DNA of 64,000 nucleotides from Saccostrea echinata (GCF_033153115.1 NW_026889797.1:868001-932000); one strand, 5' to 3'. Counted from the first letter of the stretch, positions 945 to 63,375 are shown. Numbers and translations are program-made. Notes: a model not told the origin generated them from the sequence alone.

Positions 945-1113
945 TTAGATCTTTTGGAGTGCATCGTAATGTAAAGGTTTTCCTAGTTCTCCAAGTTCTT
1001 GATATTCTACAATGACTTTTTCAGTAGAATTTTCGTATGTGTTATCTGGTTTACACTGTGCAGGATTAAACAGTTCTTCCATCCTTTGCGTACAGTTTCT
1101 TCTCTTTCGTAAC
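945..1113 (-). CDS. Gene A last exon, cytoplasmic tail
   Basis: tttacag acceptor; LRKRRN...NTYEN...VEYQELGELGKPLHYDALQKI*; homologous to the tails of genes B and C. Confidence 0.88.
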
Positions 1114-4100
1114 CTGTAAAAATAATTATTATTTATTGAATTTAAAGGAAGAGGCTCAGGTGTTCTTACGGTCATATGAGTACTATGGGTATTTCTTCGC
1201 CAATTTAACCATACCTCTAACTGAAAAGTCGTACTACATGAGCCATTGGCAGTTTAAAAAAAAATGGTTTGAGCTCCCTGCATAGTGAAAATTGTTTAAG
1301 ATCATAAAGAAGAGTACAGTAATCAAAAATATCAAAAGTCTCATTGCTTTACCCAAGGACTGACTACTTTTTAAGATACGCTCTATAAAAAATATCATAC
1401 GTCCGACTAAGCCCATCTCTGGGAACTGTATTCTGGACTGAATGGACATTTCTTTTAGATCCAAATGTAAGTTGAAAGCTACCAGTTTAGTATAATAACT
1501 GAAGTAATAAGGAATGAGGTTATTTTTTAAGGCAGCAACAAGATTAGTTTTACTGATATTTTTGAAACACTCGTTTTTATCATCCTCTTCGTATTGTGTG
1601 GTACAGAATATTGAAAAAAATCAAATATATCCAGTTATATAGAAATCGTTCGTAGGGCTTGAAAACTAACACTGTCTTTCAGATCAAGGAAGGATAGCGA
1701 ATCTACTCTGTTAGGAGAAAACTGAAATTGATCTAGTTTCTTTAGCCTACAACTGCATTAATAAGCTAACTTTTTTTCGTTTTCAATATTTCGTCCCACA
1801 TAAAACGAAGTAGACAGAATCAAAGCCAACAATGATAAGAATATATAAAGAATGCTGGGCCATATTTAAACAGGAAAAATTTACAGTTACAACACTTAAA
1901 AATAACAATGCATCAAAGTAAAATACCTGTAACAAGTTATTAAAATTTATCAAAAGGTACACTGCATTTCAATTATTGTCCCAATCTTAAATCAACTTAA
2001 CTTCCATATCATAAAGATGTAAAAAAAAAAAAAAAAATCATAGTTCACAATGCACTTTTCGACGTGAAGTCTTTATTGTTTTATGTGGAGTGGGAGGCGG
2101 AACAAGTAATTTTTTTCACAGTGAAAGATACATTTTATAATTAAAAAAAAATATTGAAAGATTTTACATAGAGCAGCAATTCCAATTTAAACCCTGTATT
2201 GAATGCCATTAAATCTTATTATTATTCATGGAAGTTATTAAATTATTGTTCTCCTTGCTCTTGTTTGCTGGGTTGGCAATTTTTCATCGGGGTGAGTTAT
2301 CAAATCGCTTTTTAAGGGCAAACACCTAATAGTTCATGATCATTTTTAAATATAATGAAATAATGAAAATATTTCTTAACTTTTAAATTGTTGATGTTTT
2401 CTTCAAATCGAGAGCATTACACGTAGTTCATAAATATATTAAAACAAAAAACAAGAAAAAAAAAAAAACTTGTAAAGACCATTCATATTTGAAATCCGAA
2501 TATGTCTAAATTTGTGACATGTAACCGTCATTCGGTGAAGTCTCTGAATGAGTGAACAAATTCACAAAAGGTACGTTAAACAATATTCATTGAATGAATG
2601 AATCATTAAAACAATGGTGCGCATTATTTACATTTTTACGTGACTCAAATCAGGTTTTTAACCTAAACGCAAAGCAGAATGGAATAAACTATCTTATTTC
2701 AATTCATATTACAGAATATTTTGTAATGATGTTATTATCAAACTGCTTTAGGAAAAAAATCTTTTAAAGATTGTCTTTTATGTAACACACCTCTGCAATA
2801 TACTTTCTGATTCAAAAGGAATCATACGGAACATTAGCAAACGAAAAGATGTAAACAAATATGTGCATATTCGTCTTTTTCATAGGCTGAAAAGAAATGT
2901 GAACACGTTTAAGAGCAGCTCCTAGCTCATTATATTCATTAACCATTCATCAATAGCCTAATGCACTGGATATAAAATTTTCTATTAAAAGGATCTATGT
3001 TTCCAAAATGTATAGGAAGCCTTCTTTAATCCTGAAACTAGGTAATAAATACGGCACGTTCGTTAAGGAGCTTATTCCTCGGTACCATCATCAAATATAA
3101 GACATATACCTCCTATTTGTCCAGGGAGAAACATGGGACTATTTTCAAAAATATGACGAACTCAACCCTAATACGGGGACGTGTTTCTGAAAAAAAAGAG
3201 GTGTTCTAATTTAATATATTTTGTAAAGAATTTATATAATATTTAAATGGTTCTCACTAATTGATATCTAGAACTGGGGAAAAGAACAATAAAGATTATA
3301 TTTATTTTGATTGATACTGCCACACCCTCAGATTAAAAGGTAGAATTCATAAAATGTCCATTTATACCAGGGAAAACTTTAAAATAAAAACGATCAAAAC
3401 ACGTAAAATGTCACAAAGCGACGACTGAAAACAGAAAGCAATAGCCAACCTGAGTTACTCAGGTGACCTAAAATAGAGTAATTATGGTGAAATGCACCAG
3501 AAAATCAAAATCTAACCAAACTGTTTTACTCTAGAAGATAATGCTAATTTTTTCCTACCGTTTCAGAAAGACATAAGCGATGATGAAAACATTAGCTGTG
3601 AATAAGACAAAGAATGTCCCTAATGTGCCATAGAATCTGGACTGCCAGACAGATTCTTCCTCTGTTTGAACTGCAATGTCAATTCATTAATCTTGTTTCA
3701 AAGATTGTAGTGCAAGCAATTAGTGGTTGATAAAGATCGGTATTGAAATTTCATTAAATTAACATAAACATTCATATTTGTTAACATTTAAAAAATTCGA
3801 AAAAAAAAATCCTTTGACTTCGCTGTTAAAGTTCGAAGGAAATAAGCACTGTGTCTGCTGTCAGAAGCAATTTACCCTTATCACAACGAATTCCCTCCCA
3901 GCCTTGTAAACATCCTCTTTGACATTCTCCCGTGGTCCCGTAACATCTTCTGGGTTCCACACAATTGACGCTGCAATTTTCACTACAGTTATTTCCATAT
4001 TTTCCGATTAAACACCCTGGAAATTAAAGTTGTTTGATCGTGCTGTAACGTGTGAACAAGGGCTTTGCATCAGACTAGTTACATGTATATCGGTATGTGT

Positions 4101-62400: not shown

Positions 62401-63212
62401 CGCTTGAATAACGTACATGTAATGACGCAGCTCTGTTTTGTATTTAGTTTCCTATTTCTTTGTCATCATAATTATTTTCTTTGTCGTTTTCAACAATATT
62501 TATTGGAAGCAAGAGGTTTGGTTTACCTTTATGAAATTAAGTTGATATACATAAACATGTATTTATTGTAGTCATTCACTGTGCAACATGTACAGATTCA
62601 CACACTAATGATTTAATAAATGTCCTTAGTGATATTTTTATTCAAAATGTGTAAGGATAAAGTTAGGTTAACATTCTATTTCATCATCAAATTAATCTTA
62701 GTCTCTGTTTCTAAGACGCCATTTTTAAAAATAATAAAAAAAAGATGACGTTATTGAATAACGCCAATGACGTTATTGTTTCAATAGAACATGTTGTTTT
62801 CAAACACATATATTTTTAAAACTATTGCAAATTAAATCCTCAAATTTTGACTATGTGTCAAAAATGGGCATTATATTTCTATGCTAAGCAATAAAATTAA
62901 CATTCTTTTTTTTTCAAAGCTAGTTTCTGAATAGGTAATGTGATACATGTACATATGTGCAACATAAGCCCAAAACTAACAATTGTCAATTATTCACTTC
63001 AACAGAAGCATTTCAATAATGTTCCAAATAGAATAACAATGGAATTTTAAAAAATGCAAAAAAGTAAAAAATTTAAAAATACCCCAAGGGCTTTTACTCA
63101 AATATATTTAAAAGTAAGACAATTGCAACAATTATATCAGATTCTTCCTGGTATTTCCAAAATCAATCAGGATTTGTAAATTCTGATTTTAATTTTCATT
63201 TCCTGAATTATG

Positions 63213-63375
63213 TTATCCATCTTTCTGCTGCATTGCATCATAATGAGAAGATTCTCCTAGCTTTTGAAGTTCCTGATATTCACCAGGGATATTTTCATAA
63301 ATATTATTTGCCTCACATTGTACAGGAGTACAGAATTCTTTCGTGATTGGTGGTACCTTTGTTTCCCTTCTTTTC
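63213..63375 (-). CDS. Gene C: last (cytoplasmic) exon of a third paralog; the rest lies beyond the window
   Basis: ttttcacag acceptor; KRRETKVPPITKEFCTPVQCEANNIYENIPGEYQELQKLGESSHYDAMQQKDG*; aligns with the gene A tail; absent from the ORF track. Confidence 0.85.

Follow-up and report, generated by a model that had tools for sequence, protein, structure and literature searches.

F-type-lectin-fold and EGF receptors with ITAM-type or tandem-phosphatase tails in a tandem cluster of the oyster Saccostrea echinata

We analyse here a stretch of 64,000 nucleotides from Saccostrea echinata (GCF_033153115.1 NW_026889797.1:868001-932000), called the window in the following, in which three paralogous receptor genes (A, B and C) lie wholly or in part. 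An earlier note on this DNA had described a cluster of lectin-EGF receptors whose tails carry three different tyrosine motifs with differing signalling outputs. We prefer another explanation, at a probability of about 55%: a tandem cluster in which heads made of an F-type-lectin fold and EGF-like repeats are joined either to a tail of ITAM type (from immunoreceptor tyrosine-based activation motif) that would recruit Syk, or to a tandem phosphatase that would tune or oppose it. As far as sequence can tell, the real signalling contrast would lie between ITAM-tailed and phosphatase-tailed genes, beyond the original window.

Three receptor genes and a second contig

Gene A lies on the minus strand at the beginning of the window. 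Its F-type-lectin-fold domain is encoded by two exons (10936-10709 and 10335-10081, spanning 10081..10936), followed by five EGF-like exons in 3876..7712 (7712-7584, 7292-7155, 7019-6879, 4266-4129 and 4016-3876), a transmembrane (TM) exon at 3559..3670 (RFYG class, entry phase 1, exit phase 2) and a tail exon at 945..1113. The tail holds a YEN at 1037 and YQEL-x8-YDAL at 1004-957, and ends with a stop codon at 947-945. Every junction between these nine exons is GT/AG, and a single open frame of 483 codons runs from the first lectin exon to the stop. Three of the EGF introns are skipped precisely at the predicted ends in contigs of a public run (X1), whose type we take to be RNA, a guess rather than a recorded label. 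No contig of this run covers the TM-tail intron, the lectin exons or a signal exon, and the run is uninformative about their splicing. A database protein labelled Saccostrea echinata is 100% identical to the gene A lectin exon, and its named relatives are all oysters. As a single-sequence query the gene A tail returned no match at E<=10. One intron of the gene contains degenerate transposase-like frames (8540-9410, minus strand); we presume a resemblance to mariner/Tc1, which Pfam did not confirm, finding no match for the frame at 8542-8946.

Gene B lies on the plus strand. A predicted signal-peptide exon (22649..22712, donor phase 1) precedes two lectin-fold exons (24309..24542 and 35207..35462), seven EGF-like exons in 39311..51830 (starting at 39311, 39747, 50146, 50421, 50716, 51346 and 51690), a TM exon (51944..52058) and a tail exon (52415..52586) with YQEL-x8-YEEF at 52533-52580. 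The second lectin exon has 256 nucleotides against 255 in A and C, and this excess base, which shifts the frame near 35239, leads to a stop codon at residue 92 of the spliced reading frame. Two EGF exons are damaged as well, with loss of the in-phase acceptor at 50146 and truncation at 50421. The frameshift and the lost acceptor are identical on a second contig, C58, whose copy adds a stop in the first lectin exon. Because of the frameshift, its presence on C58, the lost acceptor and the truncated EGF exon, gene B is probably dead, a pseudogene frameshifted on both of the assembled contigs from which these lesions were read. An alternative acceptor beside the frameshift could restore the frame with the loss of 11 residues.

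The introns of gene B house repetitive DNA. In the second intron, units of 181 bp and 166 bp are arrayed in tandem at 24853-25964, 27895-28796 and 29485-29989. Another intron accommodates a Ngaro-type tyrosine-recombinase retrotransposon (40994-47364, plus strand) with gag-like, reverse transcriptase, recombinase and SGNH-hydrolase frames. Its split direct repeats (A1 40994-41204, B1 46078-46532, A2 46528-46738, B2 46910-47364) are laid out in agreement with PMC9210276. The recombinase region is broken by a 110-bp tandem duplication at 44268-44490, and the element is also found on C58 (99.6%).

Gene C is represented in the window only by its TM exon (63490..63601) and its tail exon (63213..63375), both on the minus strand; the tail holds a YEN at 63299 and YQEL-x8-YDAM at 63278-63231. 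The remaining exons, two for EGF repeats, two for the lectin fold and one for the signal peptide, are located 1.4-12 kb past the window end, at C48:933386-943789, where C48 is the window contig. The gene comprises six in-frame GT/AG exons plus the signal exon, and all parts of the architecture are present. The database model P0070 joins the gene C TM to its tail, and the models of many relatives do likewise. Signal exons were found by a scan for gene B and for gene C on both contigs. The cluster of three paralogs described earlier is confirmed in part, with the corrections that B is not intact and that most of C lies outside.

Gene C is adjoined by a further gene, D (C48:957182-968538). On both contigs the tail of D has the first tyrosine unit only and then stops, which is a hemITAM-like form (P0044, P0033).

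Contig C58 is collinear with C48 in reversed orientation. Its sequence is most simply read as the second haplotype; alternatively, C58 may be a segmental duplicate of the window contig. Synonymous divergence (dS) between gene C and its C58 counterpart is 0.09 in the tail, 0.17 in the TM exon, 0.48 in the last EGF exon and 0.75-1.14 in the lectin exons. The divergence grows outward from the tail and, in the lectin exons, comes near the paralog mean of 1.2. At locus C one tail therefore stands under two different heads, and the diversification sits in the head. Elsewhere on C58 (1293252-1330652) lie two copies of the gene A head and TM; downstream of the first, a tail exon was looked for and none was found. 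One database model, P0045, fuses the signal and first lectin exons of the C58 locus C with a phosphatase gene at a distance of about 330 kb, which is either a mis-joining or the trace of another haplotype.

One tail motif in many genes

The three tail motifs are present where the earlier note placed them, with equal tyrosine spacing, and YEN lies upstream in A and C and is missing in B. In all three genes the predicted TM-tail intron has GT/AG ends, and its phase agrees on both sides (phase 2 to phase 2). According to the ITAM consensus, YxxL/I-x6-12-YxxL/I with an upstream acidic residue (PMC6994640), gene A fits fully, and the last position departs from the consensus in B (Phe) and in C (Met).

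Genome-wide, the motif exceeds chance: the DNA pattern YQELG[EQ]L has 33 matches, and its reversed control has 0. One match, on C14, was discarded as chance since stops abound in its frame; the 32 retained matches include haplotype duplicates and hence are not independent. Although the pattern left the second half free, the second tyrosine stands at +12 in 28 of the 32 tails, so the proposed spacing is kept in the wider family. At +15 these 28 tails have Leu (26), Ile (1) or Val (1), and neither Met nor Phe. Hand-picking gave 35 tails, whose last motif residue is Leu in 28, Ile in three, Phe in two, and Val and Met in one each. Over 34 tails the uncorrected pN/pS (nonsynonymous to synonymous proportions) is 0.29 at the second tyrosine and its +3 residue against 0.94 in 12 upstream codons, a comparison biased by the make-up of the hand-picked set, which was selected for a second tyrosine and excludes repeat tails and tyrosine-less tails. 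A profile of 30 tails run against 1.84 billion proteins gave 41 matches, 40 of them new, and 36 of the 40 fit the two-tyrosine pattern (25 Leu, 11 Ile, no Met or Phe). Ten matches were looked up: nine are named oyster proteins and one is unnamed, with no named snail among them.

The methionine of gene C is encoded by ATG and the corresponding leucine of the C58 counterpart by CTG, a one-base difference; the S. cucullata relatives P0064 and P0065 likewise have Leu where gene C has Met. Since the tyrosine at +12 and the leucine at +15 dominate genome-wide and the methionine of C is one base from leucine, we regard the tails of A, B and C as one motif rather than three. The difference between Leu, Met and Phe is probably, for the most part, tolerated variation or drift.

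YxxM binds the p85 subunit of PI3K, YxN binds Grb2, and the inhibitory counterpart of the ITAM (ITIM) follows S/I/V/L-x-Y-x-x-I/V/L. On these patterns, the residue that follows the second tyrosine could specialise the paralogs, with Leu serving Syk, Met PI3K p85 and Phe some other partner, and A would double as an ITIM receptor. The three residues do differ, and several tails speak for such specialisation and weigh against a single motif. Besides B, one C58 paralog (L080) has Phe, Met recurs in one S. cucullata protein, and a Pro variant of the tail occurs in five Magallana/Crassostrea proteins. YxN is present in 7 of the 35 tails, where it is a sub-lineage trait, and tails with a single tyrosine (gene D, g18) or with repeated units (on C42) exist. 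However, the methionine is absent from the C58 counterpart, Met and Phe are missing from all 28 pattern tails with the +12 tyrosine, and B is frameshifted on both contigs. Nor does the ITIM fit set A apart: at the first tyrosine VEYQEL reads GEYQEL on C58 (Val to Gly), and at the second tyrosine the required residue at -2, Ser or Leu, is common to 29 of the 32 tails. We therefore hold residue specialisation to be quite improbable. The three motif classes dissolve in the genome-wide tabulation, and output switching by one tail residue is mostly noise. What remains of the diversifying receptor family proposed at the outset is a large, fast-changing family with an ITAM-type tail.

Tail variety itself is real and lies mainly in the number of units. 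By analogy with CgIgR, a Pacific oyster receptor described below, the two-tyrosine form likely recruits Syk once it is doubly phosphorylated. As a separate observation, L068, L070 and L072 (C42) and P0136 bear two to four repeated tyrosine units per tail.

Heads, phosphatase tails and their mixing

The N-terminal domain of gene A was modelled with a mean confidence score (pLDDT) of 91.4. Its top fold matches are 3cqo (Z 19.1) and 1k12 (Z 18.5), with a root-mean-square deviation of 2.1 over 137-138 aligned residues. The calcium motif h2DGx is kept: each of the 25 C48 domains that were aligned has AVDG or ALDG. In contrast, the fucose motif, defined as H-x24-RxD-x4-R/K in PMC5712786, is absent: the position of the histidine is Leu in C (aligned with 1k12) and Ile in A and B, and a regular expression applied to 148 database domains found the fucose histidine in one and the terminal R/K in none. 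The word lectin in the lectin-EGF description thus holds for the fold only. The ratio of nonsynonymous to synonymous substitution rates (dN/dS) averages 0.22 over the lectin domain in pairwise comparisons, and the two most variable loops reach 0.65 and 0.59.

A search with the lectin exon found 178 relatives; among the best 120 of these, 17 have phosphatase domains and five have bodies of adhesion G-protein-coupled receptors (GPCRs). We tiled C48:620-1792 kb (1.17 Mb) and assigned tails by physical adjacency and not by database models, because the model P0045 proved chimeric; three of these assignments bridge introns that total 40-46 kb. The tiled region contains 27 genes, of which 14 have an ITAM-type tail, ten have a tandem phosphatase, and three (g05, g06, g12) were searched for a tail and none was found. 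The classes are interspersed. All ten phosphatase genes have the WPD loop, and eight have the catalytic His-Cys start. The TM exons fall into two classes which track the tail: those of the phosphatase genes are GG-type in ten of ten, and those of the ITAM genes, four of ten being detected by the TM-class scan, are all RFYG. Phosphatase juxtamembrane exons and ITAM tails are also found 20-330 kb apart on C15, C17, C18, C27 and C42.

The heads, however, do not sort by tail class. On a lectin tree of 25 C48 genes (g03 and g27, each missing one lectin exon, were omitted) the tail-class label changes 8 times, against 7.5 after shuffling, and lectin-domain identity is 63.3% within a class and 63.6% between classes. 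Two mixed-class pairs, g14/g16 and g19/g20, are strongly supported. For the 22 genes with tails (the three tail-less genes being left aside), the approximately unbiased (AU) test rejects a phosphatase clade of lectin domains (p=1.8e-52). Exon by exon, the head of the phosphatase gene g14 is collinear with those of the ITAM genes g16 and g18 at 69-84% identity. A tree of database proteins (51 of the 120 rows) mixes the classes too; it was set aside because two of its ITAM-labelled rows have a single tyrosine, one phosphatase row is a fragment and P0045 is chimeric.

From this anatomy we infer a signalling scheme, every step of which stays conditional. A ligand would cluster the ITAM receptor, and a Src kinase would then phosphorylate both tyrosines. 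Syk, with its tandem SH2 domains, would dock on the phosphorylated tail and trigger hemocyte activation or engulfment. Phosphatase receptors whose heads are related would meet similar ligands and set the threshold, either by erasing the ITAM signal or by priming Src. Receptor phosphatases can also activate Src kinases, as CD45 does. Within the array, unequal crossing-over or conversion would re-couple heads to tails. A stronger version, which we put forward only tentatively, is a true paired-receptor system in which the counterweight to the ITAM is the same swappable head on its own phosphatase, and in which heads would move from on bodies to off bodies or the reverse, and from one haplotype to another.

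Several findings weigh against the tandem cluster of opposed tails. The scan for signal-peptide exons found none for gene A or its two C58 copies. Strict alternation of the classes along the contig was rejected (13 switches against 11.6 when shuffled, P=0.36). Three contigs without any ITAM tail matched by the pattern (C6, C33 and C61) have clusters of phosphatase-like exons. The best ITAM-phosphatase head pairs on C48 are 76-79% identical with mostly unalignable introns, so that head exchange there was probably not recent; classic paired receptors have closer heads than these. No window of 12 codons in the lectin domain exceeds a dN/dS of 0.65, and positive selection is unsupported by these pairwise averages. 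Finally, only one of the six eastern-oyster family genes that were checked appears in the hemocyte differential-expression tables (PMC13070813 supplement), and its model is without an ITAM.

Some of these points suit another explanation, in which the ITAM works but the phosphatase genes are mere neighbours, and birth-and-death duplication and exon shuffling mix the heads without functional pairing. Broken or partial genes and orphan exons abound in the tiled, repeat-rich array, the order of the classes is random and heads of different classes are only modestly identical. Adhesion-GPCR bodies in five eastern-oyster proteins carry this head as well, as expected of a mobile module. On the other hand, the two TM-plus-tail modules remain distinct while the heads mix, and both classes co-cluster on several contigs and in other oysters; lectin domains of ITAM-like and phosphatase database models from Magallana are 87-91% identical, with the reservation that these models may be mis-joined. 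We consider the mere-neighbour explanation doubtful. As to the GPCR fusions themselves (P0083, P0090, P0115, P0117 and P0119), a lectin-fold and EGF head sits on a GAIN/GPS and seven-TM body, and the five proteins form one clade.

Relation to known receptor systems

Database names of the oyster relatives are MEGF10/11-, draper-, CED-1- or SCARF-like. The likeness to Draper, MEGF10 and CED-1 (PMC8092387) consists of EGF-like repeats, one TM and an ITAM read by a Syk-family kinase. In contrast, Pfam scans of eight full proteins found no EMI domain, and NPxY is absent from the A, B and C tails, as noted earlier, and, in 14 further proteins with a tail, from the final 120 residues. The oyster genes carry an N-terminal F-type-lectin fold and a tail of about 55 residues, and occur in dozens of copies. 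Because the EMI domain and NPxY are lacking, the family does not belong with Draper/MEGF10 despite its names, and the domain content indicates that the automatic naming of dozens of oyster genes as MEGF10, draper or SCARF is mistaken. With F-type lectins such as the eel agglutinin AAA (PMC5712786; 1k12, 3cqo) the heads share the fold and the calcium motif AVDG. They differ in lacking the fucose histidine and second arginine, and in being membrane-anchored on EGF stalks.

For the tail, the closest precedent is CgIgR of the Pacific oyster, whose ITAM is reported to interact with CgSyk and to drive ERK and phagocytosis (PMC6994640). It shares the YxELG start and the second tyrosine at +12. CgIgR has five Ig domains instead of the lectin-fold and EGF head, and the available text of that paper presents a single receptor and describes no phosphatase cluster. 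Vertebrate paired receptors such as CEACAM1/CEACAM3 (PMC5112662) resemble the cluster in their grouped genes, similar ligand-binding regions and differing tails, one with an ITAM. Unlike them, the oyster partner carries its own phosphatase domains and not an ITIM, and its opposing role is putative.

The nearest architectures have been described in snails. The Biomphalaria LG5R 'Scavenger class F-like' TM1 receptors, in subgroups 1B and 1C (PMC13712769), and the SudRes1 receptor phosphatases of the MEGF/GBD type (PMC12297450) are both tied to schistosome resistance. They share with the oyster genes a galactose-binding or fucolectin-like domain, EGF repeats and one TM, followed by a small tail (1B) or a tandem phosphatase (1C), and they are likewise clustered and variable in copy number and haplotype. 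The parts listed for 1B and 1C are all found in gene C; gene A has no signal exon found, and phosphatase versions are present in the oyster. The snail 1B tail, by contrast, is described without an identifiable signature in the available text of PMC13712769, and the likeness is architectural. The terms 'ITAM' and 'tyrosine-based' have 0 occurrences in the main texts of PMC13712769 and PMC12297450. A literature search, with most subscription journals outside its scope, found no description of an ITAM in this family or of ITAM/phosphatase pairing in molluscs. We thus regard the cluster as a paired-receptor-like ITAM/phosphatase set whose architectures are already known from snails.

These systems also bear on what the receptors may recognise. 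With the same ITAM chemistry, the family could serve recognition of self or of other cells (allorecognition, gametes, tissue clearance) instead of pathogen sensing. The head is strongly divergent between haplotypes at locus C, the absence of the fucose triad leaves room for a protein ligand, and ITAM/ITIM logic is reported from allorecognition in Botryllus and Hydractinia (PMC12065747). Against this, the same architectures stand at the snail parasite-resistance loci, and one family member is abundant in hemocytes. Self-recognition in place of pathogen sensing is therefore very unlikely in our view.

In the eastern oyster, transcripts of both the draper-like and the receptor-phosphatase kind are enriched in circulating agranulocytes (PMC13070813). 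Hemocyte transcript lists are dominated by this family, for which a Syk-type motif in receptors that share heads and loci with phosphatases offers a testable signalling scheme. With heads swapped between haplotypes, the cluster becomes a candidate in the mapping of disease resistance in oysters. Lastly, the architecture recurs at two snail parasite-resistance loci that have no known mechanism; if the paired scheme is true, its phosphatase-based logic would explain the LG5R and SudRes1 loci of schistosome resistance.

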